Assembly: GCA_964532425.1 (NCBI GenBank)
Contig: CAZHIA010000003.1
Span: forward strand, 5,594 to 69,593
DNA length: 64,000 bases
DNA from: an uncultured Candidatus Saccharibacteria bacterium
GTDB lineage: Bacteria; Patescibacteriota; Doudnabacteria; UBA920
Reading direction: 5' to 3'
A program made the translations under genes and the position numbers. Of this stretch, positions 12,092 to 53,165 are shown piece by piece (positions within the stretch are counted from its first letter, which is position 1; every line of letters begins with the position of its first letter). Under the pieces are notes generated by a model. That model ran no database searches, was not told where the DNA came from, and saw only the letters and a list, made by a program, of their open reading frames with translations.

Positions 12092-12290
12092 AGAATTGAC
12101 AAAATCGACGAAATTGACATAATTGACAAAATTCGGAAACAAAGAAATACAGTAGAAACACTATAGAAATATGGTAGAAATACAATTGTATTTCCATGTA
12201 TTTCTATTGTATTTCAATCGTATTTCTCTCTGATGTTTGTATAATTTTGTCAATTTTTTAAATTATGTTCAATTTTGTCAATTATTAATA
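12092..12290. repeat. composite intergenic palindrome (about 200 bp) built from AATTGACAAAAT and GAAATAC words
   Basis: Left arm AATTGACAAAATCGACGAAATTGACATAATTGACAAAATT and right arm AATTTTGTCAATTTTTTAAATTATGTTCAATTTTGTCAATT in inverted orientation. The core is GAAATACAATTGTATTTC (perfect 18-bp palindrome) flanked by GTATTTC repeats. Confidence 0.8.
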
Positions 12291-13721
12291 GTCTTCCCTC
12301 GACTTCGCTCCGAACAAAAGCAGGTAAAAGCTTTTTGCGAGAATCTTAATATCCAGCCATAAAGACCAATTCTCAATATAATAGGTGTTCTGACGGATCT
12401 CTTCCTCGAACGGCAAATCCGGCCAGGAGACCTGGGCAATCTGCGACATGCCGAAGATGCCAGGCTTGATAGAGAACATGCGGCGGTAGCGGTTGCGATA
12501 ACGGTCGACTTCGTCGAGTACGTGAGCGCGCGGTCCGACCATGCTCATATCCCCTTTCAGCACATTCCAAAACTGGGGAATCTCATCCAACTTCGTCTTG
12601 CGCAAAAATCGCCCGACTTTCGTCACGCGCGGGTCATCCTTGATCTTTAAGAAAGGTCCCGAAGCTCCGCCGCGGCTATTGATCTTCCAGAGCTGCTGGC
12701 GCACTTCTTCTGCCTGGCTGCCTCCGTATTCTGCGCCGACGCTTAAGTGAGTATACATGGTACGGAACTTATAAAAATTAAAATCTCGCCCCCGGCCTCC
12801 GCGCAACGCGGCATAAATGATCTTACCCCTGCTATCAATTTTAATTGCAAGTGAAATGATGATAAAGAATGGCAGCGTAAGCACCAGGCAAATAAGTGAA
12901 GCAATGACATCGAAGATGCGCTTCGCCACTTGGCCCCAGCCGTCCAGCGGCGTATTTTTCAAAGCAATGACAGGAATACCCTGAAGGTTATACATTTCAA
13001 CCGAATTACGCTGAACCTCGAATAGGTTCGGAACGAAGCTAAAGCTCAGTCCTTTGTTTCTGGCAAATTGCACCAGTTTCAAATTCACTTCGTCGCCGAG
13101 TGTGGGATTAGCCTGAATGATCTCGTCAATGCGCTGCTGCACATAGAGTTGTTCCAGTTCGTCCAGAGTTCCGTCTGTAAACTTTAATTCAGCACTGACT
13201 TCGTAGCCGTATGCTTTGTTTTTATAGACACTTTCTATCACGCTGGCATTATTCTCGTACCCGTTAATAATCACCAGCCGGTGCAAACCGATGTTTCGCA
13301 AGAATAGCAGCGTTTGAATGCCGCGGAGGACCAGTCTGCCAAAAATGACGAACAGGATACCCAGTGCCCAGGTTGCCAAAATAATAAAACGGGACGGGAA
13401 AATGGTCTGGTCGAAGAAGAACAGTAGCATCACAATAAGCAAGCCCAAAGAGACACCCACAACGATGCGTCCGAATTCATCCTGAAACTTGCGCGTGCCC
13501 CGCAAATTGTACAGCCCGAGCATTGCGAAAATGAGTATGAGAAACGGGACAATTTTGTTCGTCGTGACCAAAAAATCATGCAACTGCAGCTGGTAGATGA
13601 TTGGCTTGGAGATAATCATCGTCTGCTGGCGCAAATAAAAAGAAACTATACCGGCGCAGAGCAGCATGATAGCGTCCACAGGTATAGAGACCAGATTGAA
13701 TACGAGCTCGGTTTTCTTCAT
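12285..13721 (-). CDS. polyprenyl-phosphate hexose-1-phosphate transferase (WbaP/bacterial sugar transferase family)
   Basis: N-terminal multi-TM region plus C-terminal sugar transferase domain ([19 protein letters not shown] ... [38 protein letters not shown]). Confidence 0.85.
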
Positions 13722-13832
13722 GTCTTTTTCCTACCCTCTTCCCTGCTGGAAAACAGCAGAAAGAGGGGTAATACAACAGTTATAGCTATAGCAATTATAC
13801 CATTTATGCCCAAAAAATTCCATGGCTGTTTA

Positions 13833-13877
13833 AAGGCATAAAAAATACCACTTCTCAAATGAAAAGTGGTATTTTTA
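13833..13877 (-). terminator. rho-independent terminator after RNase P RNA
   Basis: Perfect hairpin AAAAATACCACTTTTC/GAGAAGTGGTATTTTT with U-run on the minus strand, immediately 3' of rnpB. Confidence 0.7.
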
Positions 13878-14280
13878 GGCTTCCAGCAAACTCATAAGCC
13901 GAATTCTGTTTGAAACAATCATCTATCTGGGACTGACATTGCTGCCAGCCTCGAGCGGCCTACCAAACTTGGCCTTGCGCTCTGGTAAGGATTTAGCCGT
14001 TTCACCCTCTATGTTGCCATGGAGGATCGCCCTGTACCAGTCGTCCCCCTAAGGAGGACTCCGGTTCAGGGCGCTTTCACCCTTTCGGGTTCAAGCGTTT
14101 CTGTTCGCACCTCTAAGGTTACCCTCGGCGGGCGTTACCCGCTACCATTGTTGATTTTTCTAAAGAGTTGCCCTCTTTAGAACCATCAACCGAGTGTTCG
14201 GACTTTCCTCCCCGCCCTTTGGATTGCATAGAAAGACTATTGTGAATTCTTAGCCTGAGATGTCCCCACGAACTTCCGTA
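13878..14280 (-). ncRNA. rnpB: RNase P RNA (bacterial type A); 5' boundary approximate
   Basis: Minus strand contains GGAGGAAAGUCCGAACAC (P4 5' strand with the conserved bulged U), ACAGAAUUCGGCUUAUGAG (P4 3' strand with covarying GG>AA / CC>UU), AGGGUGAAAGCG and GGGUGAAACGG motifs, and ends at a strong terminator. I could not resolve P1, so the 5' end is uncertain. Confidence 0.8.
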
Positions 14281-14487
14281 TTTCTTTAAGGCTCGTTCTC
14301 TTGCCAAAGCGTCTTTCTTTTCAGCATATGCTTCGTAATATACCAATCTAAAAGGTGTATATGCTTTTGTTGATATTTCCTGACCTGCATTATGTTCAGC
14401 GAACCTACGTTTAAGATCATTAGTTTGGCCAATATAAACAAATCCTTGTTTATTGGCCAGACTTTTGATTACGTAGACATAATGCAT
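14119..14487 (-). CDS. GIY-YIG nuclease family protein (small YhbQ-like); ORF tail reads into the rnpB 5' region
   Basis: MHYVYVIKSLANKQGFVYIGQTNDLKRRFAEHN is the canonical GIY-YIG motif. The domain ends around 14235. The open frame continues with low-complexity sequence through the RNase P RNA 5' part on the same strand. Confidence 0.7.
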   Translation of the reverse strand: MHYVYVIKSLANKQGFVYIGQTNDLKRRFAEHNAGQEISTKAYTPFRLVYYEAYAEKKDALARERALKKYGSSWGHLRLRIHNSLSMQSKGRGGKSEHSVDGSKEGNSLEKSTMVAGNARRG

Positions 14488-14621
14488 ATGCAATCCAAAG
14501 AGCGGGGCGATTGTTCGATTTGCTGAAAGCTTCACAAATCATAGCAAAAATTGGGCATTCTGTCAATATAAGAAAAGCCGCCCCAGAGCATCTGGGACGG
14601 CCACAATGGTGCGCAAACTGA

Positions 14622-15972: not shown

Positions 15973-18900
15973 TTATGAGATTGCAATAGTTTTATTGAGC
16001 ACACCTTGCTTGCCGATCGTAACTTGCCCTTCATACACCAATACTGCACGATCTTCGGAAATCTCCTTTACTTTAAGCAGATATGTTCCCGGTTGGCTCT
16101 TGAGGAAGAAAACCCCGTTCGGTTTTGTAACAGCTTTACCCATGACAATAGTGGGGAGAGCCACCGGAGAGAGCTCTAAATACAATCCGCCGACATCTCT
16201 GCTGCCGGCCAGACGACCGAGCAATCTCGCATGGGGAACGACCTTCCTGAGCACAGCAAGCACGACATACACTGCCAGGAATAATCCATTGAGCCAATTT
16301 GGCCTCATTGCAAATACCAGCAATGTCCAAGCCAGCCCCGCCCAAAAAACAAGCTCCAAAGTTATATTCAATATGTGCTCGATGCGGGGATGGAATTTGA
16401 CGATCCTTTTTTTGTCTTCCTGGTTCCAATCAAAGGCCTGCTGATCCATCGGAATATTCGGCGTCAGTGGCGCAGAACCATTGCGAACACTCAATTCTTC
16501 CCCATGGTAGACATTTTCATAGATGCCGTCACTTGATCCTGCCACGTGCACGGAAGGGAAAGTGTAGTTAGTTTTTCTTGCCCGGATTCGGTACAGTCCC
16601 GGCTTATCGAGGAAACCAAACTTCCCGTAGAGATCGGTAATGGCATGATCCACTTCTTTACCGGAACGAACGTCTATTAAATCAACCAATACCGGATCGA
16701 GCGGCTGCTTATTCTTACTGTCATAGACCGTTCCCCAATGCCGCCGGCGGGCACGTATTCCAAGCATGCCGAGCAGTCCATACACCAACCGAAGGAAATA
16801 CAGCCAGATGTCAGAAGCGCTGCCGGCATTCATGGACAAACCATACGTCGAAAGTGATGATTCAAGAGTTAACGTAGTCGGCGCAATAGCAATAGTGGCC
16901 ATTCTTGATGTCAATTCCATTGATCGCAGCTGCGGCATAGACACTATACCGGTTCGACCAGCGGAAATTTTTTCGCCCAGTTGCCGAACCACGTTTGAAG
17001 CAACACTGGTGATTCCTTCAAGAACCGGCGATATTGGAGTAACTGGCGATGCAGGAATACTGCCGGAACCACCAGAAGGCGGCTGCTCTCCAGGTATCTG
17101 CTGAATTGGCGTCGAGGATCCGGCCTGGCTTCCAGGCAAAAGGTTGCCAGTTTGATGAGGAGGATTTTCTGCAGGTGCCACCGGCGGCTGTACCGAGTCC
17201 GGGTCACGGTGAGAAGCGGGTTGATTGCTGACCGGAGCCGGCTCAGGCGGCAGCGGTACTAAGACAGGCTCCCGACCGGTATCTGTCGGCGGCACTGACG
17301 GGGTTTGAGGAGGAGCTTGTGAAACCGGCGGCGTCGCGGGTCCACCACCTCCCCCGCTCGGTGGATTCTGAACAGGTAAATCGCAAGCCGACGTAGTAAT
17401 GTCTAGAGCAGGAGAAAAACCGGTCTCCTGGGCATTAGCATTCCTCGCTTTAACATGGAATTGGTAATGACTGTTGCATGCCAGCCCGGATACTGTTGTG
17501 GTGGTCGCAGATATCCAAGAGGTCGTGGTGCTTGCCGTCATATTTTCGACCTGATATTCCGTCCCAATCGGATTTCCATTAGCATCCCATGTTAGCCCTA
17601 CCGCAGTAGCGGTAACCGTTGTCGTCGAAACATTTCCCGGGACATTCGCGAGCGTGTACGCAAACACGTCCGGCGCATAACCGCTCGTATTGTTTGCGTT
17701 CGTGACGATAGCGTAAAAATCGTACTGGGTATTTGGCACCAGGCTGGTACTGAGCCAGCTTGCGTTTGATGTCGTAGCGCTGCTGCCGGCTGTGGTTCGG
17801 TTAAAGTAGCGGTATGGTTGAGCAGCCAGTCCATACGCTGCATCAGCTGAGCCGGTTAGAGAAACACTAACCGAACTTGCAGTTACCGCAGAAACAGACA
17901 GCGTGCCTGGAACAAGTGAGGTGAGGTTTTGAAATAGAATCGAGTCAGTTACCCTGCCCGAGCTCTGGCCTGAGCCATTCAGGAATTTTGCATAAACCGA
18001 ATACGTACCATTTCCGCAGCTCCCCAAATTTTGGCAAATATCCCATGACTTTGTCGTTACATACGACTCAGGAGTCGCATCGGATAAGTCAGGTAAATTG
18101 GAAACCAGCATCAGCGTGGTTCCCGGCTGACCGGTAAGCTGGAGCGTAACATTCCGAGTCGACGTGATCGGGTCGTTTTGGTTTACATAAACACTGAAGC
18201 CCAGCGTTTCACTGCCTGAAGCCCACGGATCGAATGTGCCTCCCCCGCCAGAAGCAGCAGCTCCTTGAACTGAAACCTGACTGCTCAGCAGTGCTTCGCC
18301 GACATTTCCCGCATTGTCGAACACTCTAACTTTATAGTGGTACGTACCCGCTGGAAGGTTAGTGTCCGTCCAAGTTGTTGCCGCAGTAGATCCGGAGTTG
18401 TCCCAATTATCCGTATTGGAAAATACATACGGGGCAACACTCAATCCGGATTCAGCATCCTGGGAACCCGAAACAGCAATCGTAACAGAACCAGTACTCG
18501 TGCTGACTAAGGACAACGTTCCCGAATTCGGTAAAATAGTATCTATCCTGAAGGCAACCAGCCCATTATTTGCCACAGACCAAGGAGATTCCGCCCCTGC
18601 CTGATCCAAAGTTTTGACTCTCCAATAATAACCACTAGCCGAATCCGGCAGGACTTGCGCGCTTGAGCCGACGGAATAGAAACCGGATCCGGCATTTTGA
18701 CCGACGACAAAAGTTTTATCCCCTTGCGCGGCAAGAGCAGACGTATAGTCCACGGACAGTCCGCTAAAATCACTCGTCGTGGAAATTTGCATGCGGTAAC
18801 CGACTAAATCGGACGCGTCCGGATCAGTCAGGTTAAAATGCAAATCCGGTTGAGCAAGATTTATCCAGCTCCCATTGACCAACGGGCCGTTACCGAGGTA

Positions 18901-21900
18901 TGCGGGACTGTTTGGATTTTGATTACAGGGGGAAGCCGGCGGACTGACCATTGCGCTGTACGCGGTTTCGACTCCGTCATGGTTGCGGGCTTTGACGTGA
19001 AAAGAATATGAGTTTCCACATGACAAGCCGGCAAAAACAGTGCTCGTTGCCGTAACCCAACCTGAATTGGACGTAGCACTTGAGTTCTCGGCATAATATT
19101 CGGTTCCAGGAGGGTTTCCGTTCGTGTCCCAGGTTAAACGGACCGATGTGGCAGAAAGTACGGTCGTAGTGGCATTGGTTGGAATCTGTGCAGCTGTATA
19201 AATACTGCTCGTTGCGGTACTTGCCGAATTACCGGCGATATCAACCACCTGGGATTGAAACACGTATTTGGTGTTCGGCGTGAGGCCGCCACTGGTCCAC
19301 GTCGCGCCTCCCGGCGTACTCGTCGCCGAATTCGTCAGGTTGATAAAGTTATACGAAGCTATCCCGGAAAGATTATCCGAAGCTCCGGACACCACAACAT
19401 CCACATGGTCCGGATTCAGCCAATTAAACGTAATGGAACCGGGGTTCGGAGGAGTCGAGTCGAGTTTGAATGCTATACTTCCCGAATTAGCAAGGCTAAA
19501 CGGTGACGTTCCGCCGTTGCCATCAATCGCCTGCACCTCCCAATAGTACGAGCTATTATCGGACAAAACCTGCCCAGGCCCACCAATAGCATACGTTCCT
19601 GTACCAGCCAGCTGCCCCACGGTGAAACCATAGGAACCCTGCGGATTAAGCGCTGACGTGTAATCGAGCTGCGAAGAAGAAAAATTACTATTGGTATCTA
19701 TCCGAATGCGATACTTCACTGAATCCGCCCCATCAGGATCAGAAAGGTTGAATGTAAAATATGGGGACGTACTTGCAGTCCAGGTATTGGTCACGAACAG
19801 GTTCGGACCAAGCGAGCTCGGCGAATTCGGCGCATTGTTGGGAATGCCGGTGGTAATGGTTTTGTCTGTTCCATAGACCGACCCCTTTAAGTTCATGGCA
19901 AACATACGGACATGGTAGGTTGTTGACGGAGCCAGTCCGGTTAATGACGAAATGAAAGTCCCGCTCGCATTCGTTATCCCATTGCTCGCCACAGAACCGG
20001 CAGTGTCATACAACTTAAACTCCGCAACAGCGGTATTTCCGCCCCCGTTATTCGCGGAAATATTTAAACGATATTTTGCGTAAGGCGTTGTGTTGACGAA
20101 ATTAAAAGAACGCGATTCTCCATTTGCCCAGCTGACTTGGTTGGAAATTGATTGCAAGCTCACCCAAGCGCTTCCGTCCCATGCTTCAAAAGTCCAGTTG
20201 CGAGGAGAGTCGCCGCCGCCGGAATAATTATTTCCGGTTATCGTATACTTGTTGACGACAGTCGAAACAGGAAAATCGTATTCTAAATCATAACTCATCC
20301 CTTGGTTGGATGACCAGTATGTGTTCGGATTACCATCAAAAGCATTTGAGGCAGAACCGATGTTTGCTTTTGACGCGGCAGCGGTACCAGTCTCAAGAAT
20401 AGCCAGATTTACATTCGGCACGGACGGGTTTGGATAGGTTGCCCACACGCTCCCGTAACCAGTGATCTGATAAAATGGTAAATCTAAAATTGTGCCGTGG
20501 CCAGTGGCGGTTGTAGACAGAATGTCGGTAACGTCATCGGAGGTGACACTCGGTACTGACGCCGGATAGAGCGAGCCAGCCGCTCCAGCGCCGTAACCAA
20601 CCCCTCCGGAAACACTGCGTGAGACGCTGTTATTATAGACGGAGCTTAACACTGAAATCCTACCGCCGCTTCCACCACCGCCGTTATTGCAACCGTTCCC
20701 CCCGTTTGAAGTTAAACTACCGGAGCCGGCAAAGTTTGTGGTGGTGATGAAAATACTCCCGCCGCTTCCACCACCCGGACTCCAACAATTGAATGCGTTA
20801 GAACCGTTTGCAGAAATTACTCCATCAACGGTAGTTGTGCCGGTTACACTGAAAATCGCCGCACCGCCACCCGCACCACCTCCGTCATTCGAACTGCCGA
20901 ACTGACTTGAGTTCCCCCCACCACTCCCAAGATCGACTGGATTCACCAAGGACCCATAGGGGCTACCAGCATTCACCGCAGACCCGTTACCACCAGAACC
21001 ACCATATGACCCTCCGGCATTATTGTCACGAGGAGTTATTTGGGAGGTTCCCGGCCCCTGCCCGCCGACGTATCCGCGGCCGTTAACGTTTACCGAACCA
21101 CTGCCGCTTACGGTAAGGTTTCCGTTTACCTGCCAATTCAATTTATAGAGACTCGCCGAACCAGTTGTGGCGGTTGTGTTATACGCATGGGTCAACATAC
21201 CGTCAATTGTCACATTATTATACGTTCTACTCGCACCCAGTGCCGCCACCACAAGAGTTGTGCCCGAAGGGATTGTAATGTTCTGATTCTGCCTCAGCAC
21301 CGCAAGGTCACCACCACTGTCAACAACAGTGCCGGACCAAGTCAGGGACGAATAGGAGAACGATGTGCCCGATTGCGCGTAGTATGCCGAGTTGCTTAAG
21401 ATTGTCAGGACAGTTGATGTAGATGAGGATCCAACCAGGTAAACGGCTGCATTATTTTTTAGAGTCACACTATCCATCACAAAAACAGGCAACGGAGTCT
21501 TTCCATACCCACGCTCGTCTGTCGCACCAGATGAATTCAGGTTGTTGTTATCGAGAAGCAAGTCTCCATTTGCTTGGGCTGCGGCTTTCTTGTACAGCGT
21601 TCCACTGCCGCCATAGTTTGGCCATGTGGTTCCGCTGTAATAGGCATAGCTCACCGAAGACACATCTGTCGTGTACTTTATCGCAATACGACCCCCGCTC
21701 CCGTTACCAGAGGCGTTTCCGCACGCATTACCGCCACGCGCGGTGATTGCACCGTTACCCGCCAGAGTTCTCGTCACCACATTAACGCTTCCCCCGCTGC
21801 CGCCACCGGCATCCCAGCAGCTAAACGCATTCCCCCCATTAGCAGAGATAGCACCACTGACGGTCGTAGTAGCCGCTACGTTCAGAATGATTGAGCCTCC

Positions 21901-24354
21901 GCCGCTCCCGCCACCATCGTTCGAACCGCCGAACGCGGTAATATTACCACCGCCGCTCCCGAGATCGGTAGGGTTAGTTATCGAACCGTATGTACCGGTC
22001 GCATTCACCTGGCTGCCGTTTCCCCCACTGCCTCCATAGGAGGCCCCGGCATTAAAATTGTGCGGCGTTATTTGAGCTGTCCCCGGACCATATCCTCCGG
22101 TAAAACCTTTCGAGTCAGCCGAAATAGAGCCGCTGACAGTTAAGCTGCCGCCAATATTTGCATTAATCCTTCCTCCGATTGTGCCCGAGGTTGCAACACT
22201 GTGAGTAACTACTGCTCCGGAATATACAATAAAATCCCCGTTTGTACTTAATGGCGCAGACAGGGCGTCATAATTAAAATTGAGGACTGACGCAACCCCT
22301 CCACCCACGACTCCGAGCGTCAGTGAGTTTATTGCAGTCGGACCGTTTATATTGACAGTCGCAGCTGACGCTATCACCGCATCATCTGTTGGTCCAGGGA
22401 CGCTACCGCTGCTCCAGTTTCCACCGTCTTCCCAATTATTCGTACCTGCCCCGCCGGTCCATGAGACCGCTGAATTATAGGCATCGGCGCGAACTCCACC
22501 AAAATCAAAAACCATGTGATGATCTCCCGTACGGAGGTCAAGAAATTTTACGGTAGCCACACTATCACATTGCCACTGGGGAACGTACACGGAATGGTCA
22601 GGACGCTCCTGGACACTAACCGCCTGATCGCCGCAGGCCAAGCTCTCAAACTGCATATCGGCCACGGTATCCTGATCAGCCGGCGAGATCACTAAGTCGG
22701 AAACTCCCGTGGTCATGAATTCGATATCCCAATACTGACCAGTTATCGGATGGGAATATACGTTCAGTACCGAAATTTCTACTGTCGGGTCGACAATGAC
22801 CGGATACGAGGCATCCTTGAGCCACTCGGCGTCCGGGATAACAGTGAGCAAATTATTCTTAAGCTTTAGTTCCAGCTTCTGGCTGACACGGCCAGCACTA
22901 TCGCTCATTTGTGGAGCGGTGATTGAATACAGTTTGTAGAGCGATTGGCCGAGATATCCTTTTTTGTAGAGGTCAATTCTGTTTGGTGAAGCTTGAAGGA
23001 AGTCGTAAGTATCCATATTCAGCAAATACCGGAATTTACGGGGATGGTGAGAATTTTTCAATACAATAGATTCTTTCAAACTTCTTGCAGAGATGTCGTA
23101 CTTCACATCAGTATTCTCAAAAACATCCGAATACGTTACCGTATCACCGGACCTTGTTCCACCTGCTGCTGCCCGAGAACCAATCATAAGCATGGACAGC
23201 ACACTTGGCGCTGGCGACGACCCTTCCGCAATGGTAATCGGTTGTGACAAATCACTCGGTAAGGCAACGTCCGCGGTTTTGGTGGAACGGTGGATCAGCG
23301 AAAATTTCTGCTGGTCTCTGAGTCGATCCTGCAGTGTGTCCGAATTCTGCACTACCCCTTCCTCAGCGACCGGTTCAGAGTATTCGGCTTTAATTTTAAC
23401 TCCATCGATGGAAAGCAGTGCATCGCTCTCATCTCCCTCTCGTAAGGAACCGGGAATGAATCGCATACGAACAGTACTGCTTCCAATTTTCGTCAAAAAA
23501 GGACGAGGAAGCTCATATTCGATAAAGCCACCCATGGCGGCGTTGGAAAATCCGCCATCCAAATTGACCACTCCTGCTTTTTTCCAGGTCTGGTCCTGGT
23601 CAAAATATTCGACTTGCAACTTGGCACCAGGCAGCGGTACAGAAGCCATCGAAATATCAATCTTTAACGTTCGTAGGTAGTCAAGATTTGGAAGGGTTGT
23701 CGAGGAGTCCTCCTGGTGAAAACCAGAAAATTCAAGATCGTAGGCAGTGGCAGAATCCTCCTGGTTTTCATTCGGACTTTGTGTGACTGATGGCTCAGTT
23801 GTGGTTGCTAATACGGACGACTCCGAGCTGCTCGGAGCGGCCTTGTCATCAGAGACGACAGGGTCTGAAATTTGTGGCACAAGATCTGCGCCAACCTCTA
23901 CCGGACCAGAACTGGCAACAGTACTTGTCGCAGCGAGGTTTGCCAATTCTGATTCAATACCAAACGCCTGAACAGCCTGAGTAACATCATCCCCAGCAGA
24001 AGATTTTTCTTCCAGATTGCCAAGAAAACTCAGCTGAGCAGAATTCGACGAAGTAAACATTGATGAATCAGCGTCTGCACCAAGCTCAGTTACGAGAGCA
24101 TTATTTACATTCTTCCAAGCAAATTTTTGGCCACCAGCCCCTGCTACTGCGGTCACCACTTGCGGAACGAATCGCAAGCTGTACAGACTATTGTTTTGGT
24201 CACCTGGAGCGTCAGATTGGCTGGTCGTATCGGCTTTCACGAGGATAACACCAGACTGAAATAATTGCGCAACAAAAAAAACGGCCACCAGAATTCTGGT
24301 TGCTAAAACGGCTAACCTGGGGTAAGTTTTATTTCTGGTTTTTATCAGTTTCAA
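15973..24354 (-). CDS. giant secreted/surface protein (2793 aa) with signal peptide, Gly-rich beta-helix-like repeats, FN3/Ig-like repeats, F5/8 type C (discoidin) domain, Pro-rich stalk and C-terminal TM anchor region
   Basis: N-terminal MKLIKTRNKTYPRLAVLATRILVAVFFVAQLF. Repeated GGSGGNGS / NGGNAFSCW tracts. NAFDGNPNTYWSS discoidin-like motif. Duplicated ~110-aa modules (SSLGPNLFVTNTW... / AYLGNGPLVNGSW...). PPSGGGGGPATPPVSQAPPQTPSVPP linker. C-terminal hydrophobic helices and a carboxypeptidase-regulatory-like segment (VLVDLIDVRSGKEVDHAITDLYGKFGF). Confidence 0.85.
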   Translation of the reverse strand: MKLIKTRNKTYPRLAVLATRILVAVFFVAQLFQSGVILVKADTTSQSDAPGDQNNSLYSLRFVPQVVTAVAGAGGQKFAWKNVNNALVTELGADADSSMFTSSNSAQLSFLGNLEEKSSAGDDVTQAVQAFGIESELANLAATSTVASSGPVEVGADLVPQISDPVVSDDKAAPSSSESSVLATTTEPSVTQSPNENQEDSATAYDLEFSGFHQEDSSTTLPNLDYLRTLKIDISMASVPLPGAKLQVEYFDQDQTWKKAGVVNLDGGFSNAAMGGFIEYELPRPFLTKIGSSTVRMRFIPGSLREGDESDALLSIDGVKIKAEYSEPVAEEGVVQNSDTLQDRLRDQQKFSLIHRSTKTADVALPSDLSQPITIAEGSSPAPSVLSMLMIGSRAAAGGTRSGDTVTYSDVFENTDVKYDISARSLKESIVLKNSHHPRKFRYLLNMDTYDFLQASPNRIDLYKKGYLGQSLYKLYSITAPQMSDSAGRVSQKLELKLKNNLLTVIPDAEWLKDASYPVIVDPTVEISVLNVYSHPITGQYWDIEFMTTGVSDLVISPADQDTVADMQFESLACGDQAVSVQERPDHSVYVPQWQCDSVATVKFLDLRTGDHHMVFDFGGVRADAYNSAVSWTGGAGTNNWEDGGNWSSGSVPGPTDDAVIASAATVNINGPTAINSLTLGVVGGGVASVLNFNYDALSAPLSTNGDFIVYSGAVVTHSVATSGTIGGRINANIGGSLTVSGSISADSKGFTGGYGPGTAQITPHNFNAGASYGGSGGNGSQVNATGTYGSITNPTDLGSGGGNITAFGGSNDGGGSGGGSIILNVAATTTVSGAISANGGNAFSCWDAGGGSGGSVNVVTRTLAGNGAITARGGNACGNASGNGSGGRIAIKYTTDVSSVSYAYYSGTTWPNYGGSGTLYKKAAAQANGDLLLDNNNLNSSGATDERGYGKTPLPVFVMDSVTLKNNAAVYLVGSSSTSTVLTILSNSAYYAQSGTSFSYSSLTWSGTVVDSGGDLAVLRQNQNITIPSGTTLVVAALGASRTYNNVTIDGMLTHAYNTTATTGSASLYKLNWQVNGNLTVSGSGSVNVNGRGYVGGQGPGTSQITPRDNNAGGSYGGSGGNGSAVNAGSPYGSLVNPVDLGSGGGNSSQFGSSNDGGGAGGGAAIFSVTGTTTVDGVISANGSNAFNCWSPGGGSGGSIFITTTNFAGSGSLTSNGGNGCNNGGGGSGGRISVLSSVYNNSVSRSVSGGVGYGAGAAGSLYPASVPSVTSDDVTDILSTTATGHGTILDLPFYQITGYGSVWATYPNPSVPNVNLAILETGTAAASKANIGSASNAFDGNPNTYWSSNQGMSYDLEYDFPVSTVVNKYTITGNNYSGGGDSPRNWTFEAWDGSAWVSLQSISNQVSWANGESRSFNFVNTTPYAKYRLNISANNGGGNTAVAEFKLYDTAGSVASNGITNASGTFISSLTGLAPSTTYHVRMFAMNLKGSVYGTDKTITTGIPNNAPNSPSSLGPNLFVTNTWTASTSPYFTFNLSDPDGADSVKYRIRIDTNSNFSSSQLDYTSALNPQGSYGFTVGQLAGTGTYAIGGPGQVLSDNSSYYWEVQAIDGNGGTSPFSLANSGSIAFKLDSTPPNPGSITFNWLNPDHVDVVVSGASDNLSGIASYNFINLTNSATSTPGGATWTSGGLTPNTKYVFQSQVVDIAGNSASTATSSIYTAAQIPTNATTTVLSATSVRLTWDTNGNPPGTEYYAENSSATSNSGWVTATSTVFAGLSCGNSYSFHVKARNHDGVETAYSAMVSPPASPCNQNPNSPAYLGNGPLVNGSWINLAQPDLHFNLTDPDASDLVGYRMQISTTSDFSGLSVDYTSALAAQGDKTFVVGQNAGSGFYSVGSSAQVLPDSASGYYWRVKTLDQAGAESPWSVANNGLVAFRIDTILPNSGTLSLVSTSTGSVTIAVSGSQDAESGLSVAPYVFSNTDNWDNSGSTAATTWTDTNLPAGTYHYKVRVFDNAGNVGEALLSSQVSVQGAAASGGGGTFDPWASGSETLGFSVYVNQNDPITSTRNVTLQLTGQPGTTLMLVSNLPDLSDATPESYVTTKSWDICQNLGSCGNGTYSVYAKFLNGSGQSSGRVTDSILFQNLTSLVPGTLSVSAVTASSVSVSLTGSADAAYGLAAQPYRYFNRTTAGSSATTSNASWLSTSLVPNTQYDFYAIVTNANNTSGYAPDVFAYTLANVPGNVSTTTVTATAVGLTWDANGNPIGTEYQVENMTASTTTSWISATTTTVSGLACNSHYQFHVKARNANAQETGFSPALDITTSACDLPVQNPPSGGGGGPATPPVSQAPPQTPSVPPTDTGREPVLVPLPPEPAPVSNQPASHRDPDSVQPPVAPAENPPHQTGNLLPGSQAGSSTPIQQIPGEQPPSGGSGSIPASPVTPISPVLEGITSVASNVVRQLGEKISAGRTGIVSMPQLRSMELTSRMATIAIAPTTLTLESSLSTYGLSMNAGSASDIWLYFLRLVYGLLGMLGIRARRRHWGTVYDSKNKQPLDPVLVDLIDVRSGKEVDHAITDLYGKFGFLDKPGLYRIRARKTNYTFPSVHVAGSSDGIYENVYHGEELSVRNGSAPLTPNIPMDQQAFDWNQEDKKRIVKFHPRIEHILNITLELVFWAGLAWTLLVFAMRPNWLNGLFLAVYVVLAVLRKVVPHARLLGRLAGSRDVGGLYLELSPVALPTIVMGKAVTKPNGVFFLKSQPGTYLLKVKEISEDRAVLVYEGQVTIGKQGVLNKTIAIS

Positions 24355-26408: not shown

Positions 26409-26476
26409 TTGACCTTTGACATGTGACAGTCAGTATCAAATGTTAATGGTCAAATGTTAATGGTCAAATGTATGAT
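26409..26476. repeat. intergenic word-repeat element (ACATGTGACATTTGACCTTTGACATGT core plus GGTCAAATGTTAAT repeats)
   Basis: CATGTGACATTTGACCTTTGACATGTGACAGTCAGTATCAAATGTTAATGGTCAAATGTTAATGGTCAAATGTA, near-identical to 29713-29775. Confidence 0.8.
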
Positions 26477-26902: not shown

Positions 26903-27022
26903 AAATGTATCGAATCTACGAATCAGACGAATCTTCGAATGTTCTGCGAATCTACGAATCCCTACATTCGTAGTCCTTCGTAGATTCGTTCCATTCGTTG
27001 ATTCGATGTATTAACTGTTAAC
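26903..27022. repeat. imperfect 110-bp palindrome built from ACGAAT/ATTCGT words
   Basis: CGAATCTACGAATCAGACGAATCTTCGAATG...TACGAATCCCTACATTCGTAGTCCTTCGTAGATTCGTTCCATTCGTTGATTCG, centred on TACGAATCCCTACATTCGTA. Confidence 0.75.
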
Positions 27023-27367: not shown

Positions 27368-27463
27368 AATGTTAGTTCAAAATTTAAAGTTCAAAATGCA
27401 AAATTTAGGTGCCGCTTCGCGGCTTCTATAATTTTTCATTTTGCACTTTTCACTTTTAATTGA
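27368..27463. repeat. repeated r-protein leader element (copy 1): AGTTCAAAATTTAAAGTTCAAAATGCAAAATTTAGGTGCCGCTTCGCGGC...
   Basis: About 60 bp nearly identical to 29125-29185. Contains the GCCGC-TTC-GCGGC hairpin and AU-rich tracts. Lies immediately upstream of the rplQ start codon, which has no SD. Confidence 0.8.
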
Positions 27464-30170: not shown

Positions 30171-30264
30171 AGATATATGTTAACTTTTTAGCTCCTTAGC
30201 TCATAACGGGTGCGTTGTGTAGTCCGTAATAAGCTAACGAGCAGAAAGCTAAGCCCGAGAGAGC

Positions 30265-38383: not shown

Positions 38384-38464
38384 AAAAAATCTTATATTTT
38401 CCTGTTAAATATAATGAGCAGATGGGAATATTATAACACAAATAGGTTGCGTGATGCCAATAAA

Positions 38465-38562
38465 ACATTTAACCTTTGACAATTGACATTTAACCGATGA
38501 AATCAAAATCATCGTGTGGCATTATGTCAAAAGTTAAAGGTCACAGGTCAAATGTTGGGAAC
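38465..38562. repeat. intergenic word-repeat element (ACATTTAACC/TTGACA family)
   Basis: AACATTTAACCTTTGACAATTGACATTTAACC ... AAAGTTAAAGGTCACAGGTCAAATGTTGG. Confidence 0.6.
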
Positions 38563-39555
38563 TCACCTGCTTACCCTCGGATCACTCTTAACAGAATTGA
38601 TGACGATCAGTGTCCACATCCGCGCATAAATGCCGCAATAGACCAGCCAATTGAACCAAAACGGATATTTTTCGCGATAATGCTTGCGGTAAAAAATCCA
38701 CATAGCGTCATGGAACCAACGGAGGGCTTTGGTTGCGACCTTGCGGCTAGATTCGCCTTTGTAATGAGTAATGAACGTTTGAGGATAGTACCAAACCTTA
38801 AAACCCGCTTCCTTGCAGCGCCAGCACCAGTCCAGGTCTTCGCCGTACATGAAAAACGTTTCATCCAGCAGCCCGATCTTTTCGACAACATCCTTCCGCG
38901 CCAGACAGAAGGCTCCAACCAGACTGTCAATCTCCGATTCCTGGTCAGCCGTCTCATCCGAAAAGTTATACGCCGCATCTCCGGCTACCTTTTGCAAGTG
39001 TAAAAACCGCAGCATGGCATTCCACGGGTTCGGGAATTTCCGCCGCGCCGCGCGATCCAGGCTACCATCCGGCTTCATAATTTTGCACGTGCTCATGCCC
39101 ACATCCGGATGTGTTTCCATAAAATCGAGCATCACTTTGAACGTGTCCGGTTCGACCTTGGTATCGGGATTAAGCAGGAGGACGTAACGTCCGGTTGACT
39201 GTTTAATGCCGATGTTGTTGCCAGCCGCAAAACCGTTGTTGATGTTACGGATAAGCTTATAGCTATCAGCTGTCAGCTTATAGTTTTCGAGCCATTCATA
39301 GGTGCCGTCCGGTGAACCATTGTCGACGATGATAACCTCACCGGTATATTGCGCTCCATGAGGCTGGCTATTGGCTTGCTGTTCGGATGTAGGGGCGACT
39401 ACCAGCCGCCCTTCAGATTGCGGGCGGCCAGTGGCCGCCCCTACAAAAACCACCCTCTTACTACCCCAAATCGAAGGCAGCAGCACTTTAAGGTGTTCTT
39501 TGGACCGGTAGGAAAGAATAATAATGGAAAGATCAAACCTATTGACAGAATTCAT
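38563..39555 (-). CDS. glycosyltransferase family 2 (rhamnosyltransferase-like), with about 40-aa in-frame insertion
   Basis: LSIIILSYRS ... IIVDNGSPDGTYEW ... NNGFAAGNNIGIKQSTGRYVLLLNPD are GT2 motifs. An insert (WGSKRVVFVGAATGRPQSEGRLVVAPTSEQQANSQPHGAQYTG) is encoded by the palindromic element at 39389-39444. Confidence 0.8.
   Translation of the reverse strand: MNSVNRFDLSIIILSYRSKEHLKVLLPSIWGSKRVVFVGAATGRPQSEGRLVVAPTSEQQANSQPHGAQYTGEVIIVDNGSPDGTYEWLENYKLTADSYKLIRNINNGFAAGNNIGIKQSTGRYVLLLNPDTKVEPDTFKVMLDFMETHPDVGMSTCKIMKPDGSLDRAARRKFPNPWNAMLRFLHLQKVAGDAAYNFSDETADQESEIDSLVGAFCLARKDVVEKIGLLDETFFMYGEDLDWCWRCKEAGFKVWYYPQTFITHYKGESSRKVATKALRWFHDAMWIFYRKHYREKYPFWFNWLVYCGIYARMWTLIVINSVKSDPRVSR
39389..39444. 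mobile_element. 56-bp palindromic element GTAGGGGCG...CGCCCCTAC inserted in-frame in the GT2 gene
   Basis: Termini GTAGGGGCG / CGCCCCTAC are exact reverse complements. The inner GCCGCCC / GGGCGGC arms add a second stem. Confidence 0.55.
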
Positions 39556-40753: not shown

Positions 40754-41788
40754 CCTGGCGACATCTCCTGGTCTCTGAACGATTTGGCGCTTCCGCCACA
40801 TTTTCGGCAACTGCCTGAACATTTCAGGCAGTATTTTTAATGTCGAAATTTCGAACAGCACTATATAGCCTAGCATAAAAAATTCCCGGATAAAAAATTG
40901 AGGATAAAAATGCCGCGAATTTTTGACATACATAAAAATATGGTTCTTATAGTTGAGCTGCTTCACCCGCGGACTAATCATTTTATGATGTTTGATAAAC
41001 CCCGACACATCAGCATATCCATTTTTCGATGAGCCTGCACCCCTGCCGTGATAGCCGACCGCCTCAGGCACAAACACGCATTTCCAGCCTGCATTCCGCA
41101 GACGCCACGCCAGGTCAACATCTTCCCAGTAGGAATGGAAGTCCTCGTCGAAATACTCGAACTGACCTTTGGCATTTGGCATTTGACACTTAACCGCTTC
41201 CAAAGCGGTGCGTCGATAAGCACATCCGGCACCGGAAACCGCATCGACGACTAGCTCATTGTCGTACTGGCCCCGATCAATCTCATGCTGCCCGCGGTCG
41301 CGTGCGCGCCCAGATTTGCTAATAGAAACACCGGTCGTGTCTAAAATATTGGTCTTCTGTACGGGACGGCTCGCCTCGCTCGACACGAGTCGAAGCGGGT
41401 CACGACCGTCCCCTACGGGAAATCCAAAATTGCACCGCAACAACTTCCCCGTCGCCGCCCCCACCTTCTCATCTTCAAACACTTTCACCATCCGCTCAAT
41501 GTAATCCGGCTCCATGATAAAATCCGGATTAACCAACTGAAAAAGATCGCTCTGGTATTTCTCGAACACTAAATTGTGCCCTTTAGAAAATCCGATGTTA
41601 TACCCAGGATCTATTATCTCCACCTGGGGGAACTTTTCCGTGAGCAGTTCTTTGCCATGGTCATCATTGCCGCTTATAACCGCCACGACGTGGATATTCT
41701 TGTATGTCTGGTTAAAGATAGCCGAAAAGACCGGTTCAATAAATCGGCGGTTGTTGTAAATGACTTGAATTACGATAACCTTAGGCAT
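40745..41788 (-). CDS. glycosyltransferase family 2 (rhamnosyltransferase-like) with in-frame palindromic insertion
   Basis: GT2 N-terminal fold (VIVIQVIYNN...AVISGNDDHG) and C-terminal DVDLAWRLRNAGWKCVFVPEAVGYHGRG. The segment VGDGRDPLRLVSSEASRPV is encoded by the element at 41359-41416. Confidence 0.8.
   Translation of the reverse strand: MPKVIVIQVIYNNRRFIEPVFSAIFNQTYKNIHVVAVISGNDDHGKELLTEKFPQVEIIDPGYNIGFSKGHNLVFEKYQSDLFQLVNPDFIMEPDYIERMVKVFEDEKVGAATGKLLRCNFGFPVGDGRDPLRLVSSEASRPVQKTNILDTTGVSISKSGRARDRGQHEIDRGQYDNELVVDAVSGAGCAYRRTALEAVKCQMPNAKGQFEYFDEDFHSYWEDVDLAWRLRNAGWKCVFVPEAVGYHGRGAGSSKNGYADVSGFIKHHKMISPRVKQLNYKNHIFMYVKNSRHFYPQFFIREFFMLGYIVLFEISTLKILPEMFRQLPKMWRKRQIVQRPGDVARSC
40810..40838 (+). 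terminator. rho-independent terminator
   Basis: Hairpin CTGCCTGAACATTTCAGGCAG followed by TATTTTT. Confidence 0.6.
41359..41416. mobile_element. 58-bp palindromic element GTACGGGACGG...CCGTCCCCTAC inserted in-frame in the GT2 gene
   Basis: Termini are reverse complements with the same single C/G asymmetry as the alaS copy. Inner GGTCACGACC resembles the GGTCGCGACC core of the other copies. Confidence 0.55.
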
Positions 41789-41830
41789 AAAAATTTAATG
41801 AGCAACATTTGACATATGACATTTAACCTT
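41789..41830. repeat. intergenic word-repeat (AACATTTGACATATGACATTTAACC)
   Basis: Same word family as 6426, 26409, 29704 and 48717. Confidence 0.55.
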
Positions 41831-41972
41831 TACCTGTAGTGCAGGCCCTCGGCCTGCCTGTATTCAAATCGCACTGATCTATGGCAGCCCACGGGGCTGC
41901 ACTACATCAATTCTTTAATTTTGAATCAACTAAAAAGTCGAATCTCAATTATCCAAAGTTTAAATGTTGCAC

Positions 41973-45567: not shown

Positions 45568-45690
45568 ACAACAATAATTGACAAAAATGACAAAATTGAA
45601 CAAAATTGACAAAATTATGCTGCAATTCTATCTTCAATTTTTGTCAATTCTGTCATTTTTTTAAATTTTGATCAATTTCTAACAAGCATT
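45568..45690. repeat. composite intergenic palindrome (TTGACAAAAT family), copy 3
   Basis: AATTGACAAAAATGACAAAATTGAACAAAATTGACAAAATT ... AATTTTTGTCAATTCTGTCATTTTTTTAAATTTTGATCAATT. Confidence 0.75.
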
Positions 45691-48716: not shown

Positions 48717-48855
48717 GAGTCCAACATTTAACATATGACAATTGACCCGTGACCCGTTCTGCTCCGCTCAGGGTCATTCTGAGCTTCCCGAAAAATGCTC
48801 ATTAACCTTTGACCCATACAACCCTGTTAATGGTTCAATGTCAATTATCAATTGT
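48717..48855. repeat. intergenic word-repeat (AACATTTAACATATGACAATTGACCCGTGACCCG ... CATTAACCTTTGACCC...TCAATGTCAATTATCAATTG)
   Basis: Same TGACA/TTGAC/AACATTT vocabulary. Confidence 0.55.
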
Positions 48856-51070: not shown

Positions 51071-51111
51071 CAACAAAAAACGCAAGGCCGGGTTTCAAAC
51101 CCGACCTTGCG
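51071..51111 (-). terminator. rho-independent terminator
   Basis: Hairpin CGCAAGGCCGGGTTTCAAACCCGACCTTGCG with a U-run on the minus strand. Confidence 0.6.
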
Positions 51112-51125
51112 AATGTGAGTGAGTT

Positions 51126-52994
51126 CTATTTTTCTATCGTATCACCCTTGCCGTAACCATCCACTTCCGACTGCGGTAATGTGGTAATCTGCTTCGGCTT
51201 GATTCTGCGGTTGTTGAAGGCTTTCAGAGTTAGCGGCCTCAGCTGTCCTTTTTGCACCAGATAGACCGTACCGTCCTTGTCACCCTTGATGATCGTGCCA
51301 TCCTTGGGCGGGACCGGCATGCCAAGCTGCCACGTACTGGCTACGTCCTGGGAAAAGACGTAATCAGGAGTAATCTTGCGCTGCTTGATCACATAATCGG
51401 AGATGGGGTGCATGGACCCTTCCTTATACTCGTATTGCTGCCCGGTCTTAGAACCGATGGCGAAGAACGTGTAATCTTTAGGCGCCGCAAATCCTCCGGC
51501 TGGCAGCGCGTCCACCTCCTCGGGAGCCAACGAAGCAATCTGCTTATAGCTGAATCCGCGGTTCTTGAAGATTTCACCGAGCACCGGCTGTTTCAGACCA
51601 TTCTGGATCTGATAGACCGTACCGCTATTACTGGCTTTGACCAGAGTGCCGTCAAGCGGCGGCACGAAGCCGTTTTGCGTATACGTGGAAATCTCATCAT
51701 CCGGCACGGAATAGATGGACTTGGCCGTCACCTTGCGCTGGCCGAACGTAAAGGCCGAAAATAGCTTAATCTTGCCGTCCTGGACCAAATATACGGCCTT
51801 ATTCGTGACTCCGCGGATGACCGTGCCGTCTTTCGGCGGCAAGACTGTTCCGTTGTCGAACAGCATGGCATCCTGAGCGCTGACGGTAATTACCTTTTCC
51901 GGATTGAGACCGCGTTGTTTGAGCACTAAGTCAGACGCCAGGTGTTTGATATTATTCTGGAACAAATATTTTTTATTCTCTCCCGCTACCGTCACGATGG
52001 TATCATCGACCGGACCTAAAACCTTGTCGGTTTGATAGCTGTCGAACTCATTCGGAGAAACGACAACTGTGGTGTTCAAATTCAAATTGCGGGCTTGGGC
52101 GACGAACAACGGCACCAATTGTTTGACTCCATTCTGAATTATGTACGTATCGAGCCCGTTGGCGAGCTTCAGGAGCGTACCGTTTGGATATTTGAACCAA
52201 GCCTGAAAATATTTCCAAAAATTATAATTGCCGTTATAGACATGCGGCGTAAAACGGTATAGCGCGGCAGTCGCGCGGTTGGAAAGCTGCAGGGTCTGCT
52301 GCGGCATAATGCCGTCATAGCCGCCCATAGTGTTTTCCAAAGTAATGACGTCCCCGACATGGGAAACGCTGCCGTTGAATTCCGGCCCGCGCCCATTCGG
52401 CGTGGAAAATGATTTCATCAAGGATTTGGCAGCGCCTAAATAACGGTTGCCGCTGGAATCGAAATTCCCGAACAGTTGATAATAGAATCCCGGGTACATA
52501 CTCTGGCTGCAGCCGGTGCTATCGGGGCAGCCGAAGCCCAAAGCAAAATCCAGCGCCCGCTGGAGTCCCTGCTGGTTCGGATCGGAAAAGGCGGTAATCA
52601 GCCCCTGTTCCTTATTGAGTGTGACCAAAATAACTTGCGGGTTCAGGCCGCTGGCCCGCGATGCGTCCCAGATCAATTCGGCTGCCGTACGCAAACGCCC
52701 GAGATTCGGCTGTGGATCATCAAGCCCTTGTTTGAGCATGGTCACCGTCGGCTCTTTGAGTTTGACCAAAAAATCAGGACTCGTATTGGCTAGGACCGAC
52801 CCCTTAATTTCCAGAAACTTTTGAATACCCTGCGGCCCGCCGAATGTTTCCATATCGCCAAACACCTTATCGTCAATAAGTTTTTCCGGATTGAACGCCG
52901 AGTCAACCGCCTGGCCTTGTGCCAGGGCAGGAAGCGGCAATAAGACCAACATGATTATCACAAGCAGCTTGGCGAATTTTTTATTGATGGGCAT
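51126..52994 (-). CDS. secreted protein (622 aa) with N-terminal uncharacterised domain and three C-terminal about 60-aa repeat modules
   Basis: Signal peptide MPINKKFAKLLVIIMLVLLPLPALA. Repeats DGTVIRGVTNKAVYLVQDGKIKLFS... / DGTLVKASNSGTVYQIQNGLKQPV... / DGTIIKGDKDGTVYLVQKGQLRPL... shared with the adjacent S8 protease. Confidence 0.6.
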   Translation of the reverse strand: MPINKKFAKLLVIIMLVLLPLPALAQGQAVDSAFNPEKLIDDKVFGDMETFGGPQGIQKFLEIKGSVLANTSPDFLVKLKEPTVTMLKQGLDDPQPNLGRLRTAAELIWDASRASGLNPQVILVTLNKEQGLITAFSDPNQQGLQRALDFALGFGCPDSTGCSQSMYPGFYYQLFGNFDSSGNRYLGAAKSLMKSFSTPNGRGPEFNGSVSHVGDVITLENTMGGYDGIMPQQTLQLSNRATAALYRFTPHVYNGNYNFWKYFQAWFKYPNGTLLKLANGLDTYIIQNGVKQLVPLFVAQARNLNLNTTVVVSPNEFDSYQTDKVLGPVDDTIVTVAGENKKYLFQNNIKHLASDLVLKQRGLNPEKVITVSAQDAMLFDNGTVLPPKDGTVIRGVTNKAVYLVQDGKIKLFSAFTFGQRKVTAKSIYSVPDDEISTYTQNGFVPPLDGTLVKASNSGTVYQIQNGLKQPVLGEIFKNRGFSYKQIASLAPEEVDALPAGGFAAPKDYTFFAIGSKTGQQYEYKEGSMHPISDYVIKQRKITPDYVFSQDVASTWQLGMPVPPKDGTIIKGDKDGTVYLVQKGQLRPLTLKAFNNRRIKPKQITTLPQSEVDGYGKGDTIEK

Positions 52995-53004
52995 AGAGTA
53001 TCCG

Positions 53005-53165
53005 GTTAATGTTTTTAGTAGAAATTCATTGAAACTGATTGAAATTAGTCGTGTCTCACGATTAGTTTCAATAAATTTCTACCAGTTTCTATTAATTTCG
53101 TGCAGTATGCAGCAACAATTTTGTCAATTTAAAATTTTGCTCAATTTTGTCAATTATAATATATA
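53005..53165. repeat. composite intergenic palindrome (GAAATTGATTGAAATT / TTGTCAATTT words), copy 4
   Basis: GAAACTGATTGAAATTAGTCGTGTCTCACGATTAGTTTCAATAAATTTC plus TTTTGTCAATTTAAAATTTTGCTCAATTTTGTCAATT. Confidence 0.65.

Follow-up and report, generated by a model that had tools for sequence, protein, structure and literature searches.

Repeated-word palindromes at gene junctions of a Doudnabacteria-like genome, best read as a family of non-coding insertion elements

The DNA analyzed here (the window) is 64 kb of the 285,837-bp contig CAZHIA010000003.1 (assembly GCA_964532425.1), and its subject is a set of intergenic palindromes built from copies of the short word TTGACAAAAT. Genes of the window are nearly all on the minus strand and include the S13-S11-S4-rpoA-L17-L13-S9 cluster, recognized by synteny with annotated relatives. 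The initial annotation had described four composite palindromes, each between the stop codon of a minus-strand gene and the ATG of the next, and all four are present as described. The stop codons upstream of loci 1–4 lie at 12285–87, 32864–66, 45672–74, and 53154–56, and the ATG starts downstream at 12091, 32690, 45567, and 52994, respectively. Polysaccharide and cell-envelope genes and a subtilase flank the four loci; the closest named homologues of the Bac_transf protein at locus 1 are from "Candidatus Doudnabacteria" and Patescibacteria, and the genome is patescibacterial, with a Doudnabacteria-related origin most likely. In gene orientation, the element begins 0–5 nt past the stop codon at each locus. 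At loci 1 and 3, it ends only 2–10 nt short of the next ATG, so the downstream gene can be expressed there by read-through only.

Elements of the family measure 95–115 bp, the full range of cases being 95–200 bp, with inverted arms of 40–50 nt. They consist of two inverted arrays of about four 9–10-bp TTGACAAAA-type words around a short variable center, often with CTGCAG. Arms A and B are consistently unlike, the TTTAAAAAA word in one facing ATGACATAA in the other. Toward the center, arm A typically reads TTGAGCAAAA-TTTAAAAAAA-TTGAACAAAA-TTGACAAAA and arm B TTGACAAAA-ATGACATAA-TTGAACAAAA-TTGACAAAA. Perfect pairing is limited to the inner two words (about 22 bp in locus 2). The ends are usually (G)AATTGA...TCAATT(C), abutting or overlapping the stop and start codons. 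The parts of the four loci are as follows.

12240–12289, minus strand: locus 1, arm A; gene strand TTGACAAAA TTGAACATAA TTTAAAAAA TTGACAAAA; overlaps the Bac_transf stop codon 12285–12287
12137–12239: locus 1, nested palindrome; four GAAATAC/GAAAYAY words with an 11-nt period, center AATT, four GTATTTC words
12092–12136, minus strand: locus 1, arm B; plus-strand letters TTGACAAAA TCGACGAAA TTGACATAA TTGACAAAA; abuts the ATG 12089–12091 of a GT1 glycosyltransferase gene
32815–32858, minus strand: locus 2, arm A; gene strand TTGAGCAAAA TTTAAAAAAA TTGAACAAAA TTGACAAAA; 5 nt past the stop codon 32864–32866
32796–32814: locus 2, center; small palindrome AACTGCAGATGCAGTT bearing CTGCAG
32753–32795, minus strand: locus 2, arm B; gene strand TAATTTTGTCAATTTTGTTCAATTATGTCATTTTTGTCATTTC
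45633–45678, minus strand: locus 3, arm A; gene strand TTGATCAAAA TTTAAAAAAA TGACAGAA TTGACAAAAA
45576–45617, minus strand: locus 3, arm B; 95% identical to arm B of locus 2, L020, and L053; stops about 8 nt short of the ATG at 45567
53117–53157, minus strand: locus 4, arm A, with no matching arm B; gene strand TTGACAAAA TTGAGCAAAA TTTTAAA TTGACAAAA; starts at the S8 peptidase stop codon 53154–53156
53018–53099: locus 4, separate palindrome; GAAAT/GAAAC words with a 10–11-nt period

In the nested palindrome of locus 1, the words pair and the 4-nt spacers remain unpaired (AGTA, TATA, and GGTA vs. CATG, TATT, and AATC). The predicted fold of all 193 nt of this locus is a single long stem, in which the GAAATAC palindrome is nested in the center of the outer one. 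At locus 2, the interval of about 60 nt between arm B and the ATG at 32690 holds a promoter-like TTGCCT-17-TACAAT site. The flippase stop codon TGA (45672–45674) of locus 3 sits within the outer word TTGATCA.

The word TTGACAAAAT occurs in nine exact copies, against 0.26 expected from shuffles of the window, and all nine lie within the four loci. With up to two mismatches, copies form head-to-head arrays spaced 9–10 nt apart. This clustering at four intergenic loci is a real and statistically solid feature. The cores reported earlier were located as well, GAAATACAATTGTATTTC at 12177–12194 (locus 1) and GAACAAAATTGACAAAATTA...TAATTTTGTCAATTTTGTTC at 32776–32834 (locus 2). The claim that all four regions are composite palindromes of the same words stood for loci 1–3, which are imperfect TTGACAAAAT palindromes, but locus 4 has one TTGACAAAAT arm only. 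GAAATAC, proposed as the second shared word, belongs to locus 1 and has no exact copy in loci 2–4; it occurs 20 times in the window vs. 7.9 expected, six of these at 12144–12226. Folding of the single-stranded DNA compared with dinucleotide shuffles gave z −7.5 for locus 1, −8.9 for locus 2, and −4.85 for locus 4; the value for locus 3 was weak (z −2.5). The predicted artefact in gene calls is also real: at locus 1, the N-terminal extension LFPNFVNYVNFVDFVNS-MKIAL is arm B translated from an upstream TTG. The best reading of the four loci is that one family of non-coding palindromic insertion elements is represented here by three complete copies and a half copy.

Relatives were compared as 5–21 kb pieces (L-numbered loci), nine of them syntenic (L002, L004, L025, and L047–L052). 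The element, its arm words in unchanged order, recurs in L004, L009, L014, L020, L025, L028, L035, L038, L043, and L049, as well as in the soil contigs L053 and L054. Within the window, an nhmmer profile of 14 copies matched only the four loci; elsewhere, it matched only element-bearing contigs, all with Patescibacteria-type titles except L028, plus the two untitled soil contigs, and it gave no match in about 30 loci from other phyla. A metagenome scan by 25-mer, too specific a query, returned two matches. Arm B is 92–97% identical among the window copies, L020, L053, and L054. Locus 3 is 86% identical to the L020 copy; locus 2 is 67% identical overall to the L004 copy at the orthologous junction vs. 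76–79% to the copies in L020, L053, and L054. Element similarity thus does not follow synteny. A spread across classes to Saccharibacteria was considered and withdrawn: L006, L014, L020, and L043 carry that title, but the GAPDH adjoining the element in L020 is 82% identical to Doudnabacteria-named proteins, which makes such titles unreliable, and the TTGACAAAAT family is therefore claimed for Doudnabacteria-like genomes only.

At orthologous junctions, the element is present in some relatives, and the gene pairs abut or overlap in others. The junction between the PGI-like gene and p590 (locus 2) carries the TTGACAAAAT element in the window, in L004, and, flipped, in L025; a palindrome of AGGAAT words stands there in L049 and L052, and the genes overlap by 4 nt in L047. 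The Bac_transf–GT1 spacer (locus 1) measures 193 nt in the window and 111, 102, 80, 66, 61, 23, 20, and 2 nt in eight relatives, among which the palindromes present belong to four other word families (TACGAA, CCGAAT, ACGAAT, or TAGGTT). The rpoA–L17 and L17–L13 spacers are 96 and 120 nt long in the window, 88–163 nt in relatives with a palindrome, and 1 nt in L047. Orientation relative to transcription, for which a test of bias had been suggested, is mixed, with arm A upstream in six genomes and downstream in five. The TACGAA family also occupies non-orthologous junctions (three copies in L049, others in L050 and L038), and the CCGAAT family has four copies in L004. In five TACGAA copies from three genomes, the words are identical, and the 4-nt spacers and centers are wholly different and mostly non-complementary. 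The constancy of TACGAA and GAAATAC words beside variable spacers marks the words as the conserved units.

The four loci are part of a much larger set of intergenic word palindromes: a repeat search over the entire window, with inspection of all its intergenic spacers, showed at least six further families of inverted arrays of 7–11-nt words at gene junctions. Scanning for closely spaced inverted repeats (20 or more of 24 positions matching, loop up to 120 nt) gave 14 strong cases, 13 of them intergenic, although non-coding DNA makes up 11.5% of the window (binomial estimate about 1e-11); applied to roughly 100 kb from loci of other phyla, the scan returned five such regions. By our tally, word-palindrome junctions add up to about 2 kb, or roughly one-fourth of the window's non-coding DNA. 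The families are listed below.

6426–6541, 26409–26476, 29714–29780, 38457–38558, 41790–41839, and 48723–48855: inverted arrays of ACATTTG/TTTGACM heptamers, six sites
26903–27022: CGAATC-word palindrome at the L17–L13 junction; folding z −8.1
27368–27463: GTTCAAAAT/GCAAAAT words around a GC hairpin; second copy at 29123–29232, 95% identical over 58 nt
36289–36383: CGCGGAT-word palindrome; folding z −6.5; related ATCCGCG words in L002 and L004
34433–34467 and 34031–34066, minus strand: inverted arrays of AGCTTAT heptamers flanking a PF05635 gene at 34067–34432
30800–30990, 39249–39284, and 55078–55111: AGCTTAT arrays without an ORF of their own; five sites of this family in all
12137–12239 and 53018–53099: palindromes of GAAAT-type words in loci 1 and 4

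Nesting recurs beyond locus 1, in the copy at 29123–29232, which differs from that at 27368–27463 by an extra small nested GC hairpin GTCCGCCGAAGGCGGAC, and in L004, where the palindrome copy at 4540–4655 holds the extra small GC hairpin CCGCCAGCTGGCGG. Such additions within near-identical copies suggest a second, smaller class of nested insertions. Palindromes that are GC-rich and end in GTAG...CTAC (GTAGGGGCCGGTCGCGACCGGCCCCTAC type) form a separate family, found at 35117–35147 in an alaS-like gene, at 39388–39445 and 41386–41416 in two GT2 genes, and as an intergenic copy at 59378–59408. The copy in the alaS-like gene coincides with an in-frame insert of nine residues (GSRPSRTGE) that the L025 ortholog lacks. 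The GT2 ORF 38563–39555 has an insertion of about 40 aa around its GC palindrome; the AGCTTAT array 39249–39284 lies inside the same ORF and is translated as YKLTADSYKLI. The GC-rich in-gene palindromes recall the Rickettsia palindromic elements inside genes.

The gene enclosed by AGCTTAT arrays (34067–34432) encodes a 121-aa protein of PF05635, "23S rRNA intervening sequence protein," an Avd-like four-helix bundle; none is present at the equivalent junction in L004. Homologues of this protein are abundant in genomes of the candidate phyla radiation (CPR). In three other CPR genomes, PF05635 genes stand at unrelated junctions (Sua5–MFS, DegV–thiolase, and CorA–CysS), and all three are flanked by the same inverted AGCTTAT/ATAAGCT arrays, which brings the genomes with this arrangement to four, the window included. 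One of the three has a protein identical to a Moranbacteria-named protein. The coordinates in these genomes are as follows.

L055, 2430–2900: PF05635 gene with AGCTTAT arrays
L057, 2430–2880: PF05635 gene with AGCTTAT arrays
L058, 2501–3000: PF05635 gene with AGCTTAT arrays

The arrangement is a word palindrome that carries a gene, and it resembles a conserved gene-in-a-palindrome cassette. Inside copies of the TTGACAAAAT element, no gene was found, and a literature search on PF05635 yielded nothing relevant.

Sharing among genomes, turnover at junctions, mixed orientation, and nesting are the marks of a dispersed insertion family, not of a site-specific signal. A MITE-like repeat family (miniature inverted-repeat transposable elements), one of the roles offered by the initial annotation, fits the conserved arm order across genomes, both orientations, presence or absence at orthologous junctions, and nesting. 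We hold with moderate confidence that a non-autonomous palindromic family colonized tight junctions in Doudnabacteria-like genomes and is tolerated there, as folding rejoins stop and start without strong termination. The elements behave as DNA that is both dispersed and dispensable and would have entered narrow gene junctions in the fashion of MITEs, repetitive extragenic palindromic (REP) sequences, or intervening sequences (IVS) of rRNA. At many junctions, the predicted stems close 0–10 nt from both the stop codon and the next start. A complete palindrome may thus fold back in the transcript and hold stop and start side by side, and the operon, meeting no strong-terminator features, would still be read through; the elements would be tolerated because of these two properties. 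The repeated words may be recognition units of a putative mobilizing or binding protein, or helical segments of a hairpin; their conservation fits duplex-DNA recognition sites (of a mobilizing enzyme or a host protein) as well as helical segments separated by internal loops. We infer mobility, a mobilizing enzyme, hairpin or cruciform formation in vivo, and neutrality for operon expression.

Several observations weigh against this interpretation. A domain scan of the window genes revealed no transposase or other candidate mobilizing gene, and neither the window nor the 5–21 kb pieces of relatives yielded an autonomous partner for the TTGACAAAAT family. Phage, plasmid, and IMG/VR collections gave zero matches. 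Target-site duplications were not definable, the relatives being too distant for alignment of empty sites at the DNA level. The arms are 92–97% identical between genomes whose proteins are 45–80% identical, and this conservation, taken with words that stay invariant next to hypervariable spacers, is equally compatible with purifying selection on a host function. The pattern of presence and absence would also be explained if L047 and L048 had lost the elements instead of other genomes having gained them.

A host-selected role in RNA is possible, though unlikely: the palindrome would be an AU-rich mRNA stem cut by RNase III, a 3′ stabilizer, or a weak attenuator, punctuating operons like an excised rRNA IVS. 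Folding is strongly non-random (z −4 to −12), stems close beside stop and start, perfect inner stems reach 20–24 bp, sufficient for RNase III, and the AGCTTAT family encloses a PF05635 gene as the stems of 23S rRNA IVS do. However, a structure selected on the sense strand was rejected, with neither G-U nor energy asymmetry. Among 43 junction palindromes from eight genomes, G-U pairs numbered 119 sense vs. 114 antisense, and the more stable strand was divided 18 vs. 16. The element is found in either orientation, the words are simply invariant with no compensatory changes seen, and the junctions of L047 and L048 function without a palindrome. RNAalifold produced no usable consensus because the repeated words permit many registers. 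Loss of Shine-Dalgarno (SD) sequences at junctions was uninformative on hairpin-mediated translational coupling because most genes of these genomes lack SD-like motifs.

Some IVS of 23S rRNA enclose a PF05635 ORF in a stem removed by RNase III. With this in mind, it is conceivable, if doubtful, that the word palindromes are an undescribed junction-seeking hairpin class of CPR bacteria related to rRNA IVS: the PF05635 protein would recognize the words, members lacking an ORF would ride on it or on another factor, and RNase III would excise or cut the transcripts. The elements and 23S rRNA IVS are alike as sporadic, AU-rich, extended stem-loops inserted in a transcribed unit without destroying it. 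They differ in that the elements lie between protein-coding genes and no gene is carried by the TTGACAAAAT family; the two have a predicted stem-loop and sporadic occurrence in common, whereas a PF05635 ORF is enclosed by the AGCTTAT family only. An rRNA IVS proper was rejected, there being no rRNA in the window and the insertion points lying between protein-coding genes instead of at 23S helix 25 or 45.

Arrays of protein-binding sites (ribbon-helix-helix heptad or iteron operators, direct repeats of a response regulator, or sites of a nucleoid protein), with the palindrome as a by-product of head-to-head sites, are decidedly unlikely. In favor of this proposal of the initial annotation are the conserved words next to variable spacers: words are invariant, spacers are hypervariable and non-complementary (TACGAA and GAAATAC families), the unlike word order of the arms is fixed across genomes, periods of 9–11 bp are near one helical turn, and orientation independence is natural for sites in duplex DNA. 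On the other hand, a genome of about 1 Mb (size taken from contigs of 0.8–1.2 Mb) would have to encode a cognate protein for each of at least seven unrelated word families, and 7-nt periods occur beside those of 9–11 nt. Instead of lying at promoters, the sites separate core genes that are translationally tight, and they are dispensable at operon junctions, where relatives have no palindrome or one of another family. Known ribbon-helix-helix arrays (omega of pSM19035, ParR/parC) stand at promoters or partition sites beside the cognate gene. They share with the present arrays 7–11-bp repeats, direct and inverted, with a conserved core and free flanks; here, in contrast, many operon-internal junctions and many word types are involved, and the arrays are dispensable.

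Origin in place, through replication slippage of words and template switching of arms, as might occur in a lineage with reduced repair and with no need of a function, is very unlikely. The arms are tandem repeats, many loci have a word of their own, and one junction holds different words in different genomes. Nevertheless, the same ordered word variants and the same arm asymmetry recur across junctions and genomes. Spacers are not homogenized, contrary to unit slippage, and arms are not symmetrized, contrary to template switching; with heterogeneous spacers and unlike arms, simple slippage or template switching does not fit.

Promoter or terminator cassettes, with TTGACA as the −35 box of the downstream gene or the hairpin as the intrinsic terminator of the upstream gene, are extremely improbable: TTGACA is indeed the −35 consensus, used by this genome in canonical promoters such as TTGACA-16-TATAAT of the infA operon (minus strand), and a seven-T run follows the inner stem on one side of locus 2 (plus strand), but the TTGACA boxes of one arm face those of the other on opposite strands, no −10 hexamer lies at 16–18 nt from any gene-strand TTGACA, there is no room for a separate promoter before the genes downstream of loci 1 and 3, the stems are AU-rich (about 25% G+C) with no consistent U-tract, the T-run is antisense in all four window loci and sense in other genomes, and terminators of the ordinary GC-rich kind are present elsewhere in the window. 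A TATAAT-like hexamer is no closer to the inner TTGACA than 22–23 nt (loci 2 and 3), and only low-scoring antisense word-to-word coincidences remain for a sigma-70 promoter. An outward promoter TTGTCA-17-TAAATT on the arm-A side was discarded for inconsistent spacing (17, 15, and 6 nt in loci 2, 3, and 1). The terminator scan flags only the 6-bp CTGCAG tip, and the T7 run lies on the antisense strand. An asymmetric bidirectional terminator using the T7 run of the TTTAAAAAA word was rejected because orientation relative to genes is mixed.

Other identities were also excluded. A DNA uptake sequence was rejected, there being no exact copy outside the four elements in 64 kb. An integron attC or cassette array was rejected because the elements are flanked by core genes in synteny (ribosomal-protein, rpoA, mur, and glycosyltransferase genes) in nine genomes; neither an RYYYAAC/GTTRRRY core site (GTTCAAT fails GTTRRRY) nor an integrase was found in the window. 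REP sequences and bacterial interspersed mosaic elements (BIME) are built on a 20–40-bp palindrome with a GTAG/CGTC head, against an AT-rich element of 95–200 bp that begins with AATTGA, and no gene of a REP-associated tyrosine transposase (RAYT; Y1 transposase) was found in the 64-kb window. No family of Rfam 15 matches the loci, and at E ≤ 1, only chance eukaryotic microRNA hairpin models appear, far below threshold.

The insertion-family reading can be placed beside known dispersed repeats. MITEs, Correia/NEMIS elements, repeat units of pneumococcus (RUP), enterobacterial repetitive intergenic consensus (ERIC) sequences, and REP/BIME are likewise short, non-coding, multicopy, and intergenic between co-directional genes, with inverted arms; like the present elements, they occur in either orientation, vary in presence between relatives, can form hairpins, and nest. 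The inverted arms, small non-coding size, and dispersed copies in either orientation with presence or absence are those of MITEs, whereas no transposase-bearing autonomous element with such ends was found among the window genes or in the phage, plasmid, and IMG/VR sets. The arms here are tandem arrays of 7–11-nt words in contrast to a unique terminal inverted repeat, target-site duplications were not definable, and no autonomous insertion sequence or RAYT partner was found in the sequence covered. The TTGACAAAAT element has no GTAG/CGTC head; the GC-rich GTAG...CTAC family has one.

Short tandemly repeated repetitive (STRR) heptamers of heterocystous cyanobacteria are intergenic tandem words described as direct arrays. 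The ACATTTG and AGCTTAT families resemble them as tandem intergenic heptamers; the arrays here are, by contrast, paired and inverted, and the TTGACAAAAT words are 9–10 nt long. According to their abstracts, palindromic repeats in the intergenic organelle DNA of Volvox carteri are interpreted as selfish DNA (PMC2670323), and a Fusarium organelle genome has palindromic microsatellite repeats (PMC7218506). At the level of these abstracts, not of detailed architecture, the likeness is a small genome with spacers colonized by short low-complexity palindromes; lineage and sequences differ. No description of the present elements was found in the literature, in searches covering few subscription journals. 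Among bacterial intergenic palindromic repeats, the word-array architecture is unusual, and the link to the PF05635 IVS-protein gene is suggestive.

Other features were recorded in the window. RNase P RNA (13879–14193, minus strand), the only Rfam 15 match to pass its gathering score, is directly followed by an ORF with a GIY-YIG nuclease domain (14194–14535). A sub-threshold match to the Rfam alpha-operon ribosome-binding site (30138–30242, minus strand; 22.6 bits vs. a gathering score of 38) sits just upstream of the S13 gene, its expected position. Two giant ORFs are present: 15973–24354 (2793 aa), inserted between the SIMPL and S9 genes relative to other genomes, and 59427–63980 (at least 1517 aa), with internal repeats spaced about 789 nt apart. 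At 30860–30945 on the plus strand, antisense to the operons, a TTGACA-17-TATAAA site precedes, by about 60 nt, a GC-rich hairpin and T-run; the pair may specify a small antisense RNA or may be no more than the bidirectional terminator of the p564 gene.

Among the compared loci, those of the Prevotellaceae metagenome-assembled genome RUG12065 (L007, L010, L012, L013, L015–L017, and others) hold more than 20 copies of an unrelated repeat, which opens with a T-run and the 20-mer TTGAACAAAATTGACAAAAT and goes on with GGCCATTTTTGGCCTCCATATTTC...; it is probably a repeated promoter region or MITE of that genome. Matches of the 20-mer in Acidobacteria and others were set aside as coding for LNKIDK of Era-type GTPases.

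Genomes of CPR bacteria are very small and densely packed with genes, and the usual description has them poor in mobile DNA and regulators. In the window, word palindromes occupy about a quarter of the non-coding DNA and stand even between ribosomal-protein genes. In practical terms, they create false N-terminal extensions in gene calls and may pose difficulties for assembly and binning. In evolutionary terms, they indicate fast turnover at junctions otherwise frozen in synteny. Through the link between the AGCTTAT family and PF05635, a protein family of unknown function becomes accessible to testing. The mechanistic question is what spreads or selects hairpins that are conserved as short repeated words. 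If the IVS-like class linked to PF05635 is real, CPR operons would be punctuated by mobile spacers.

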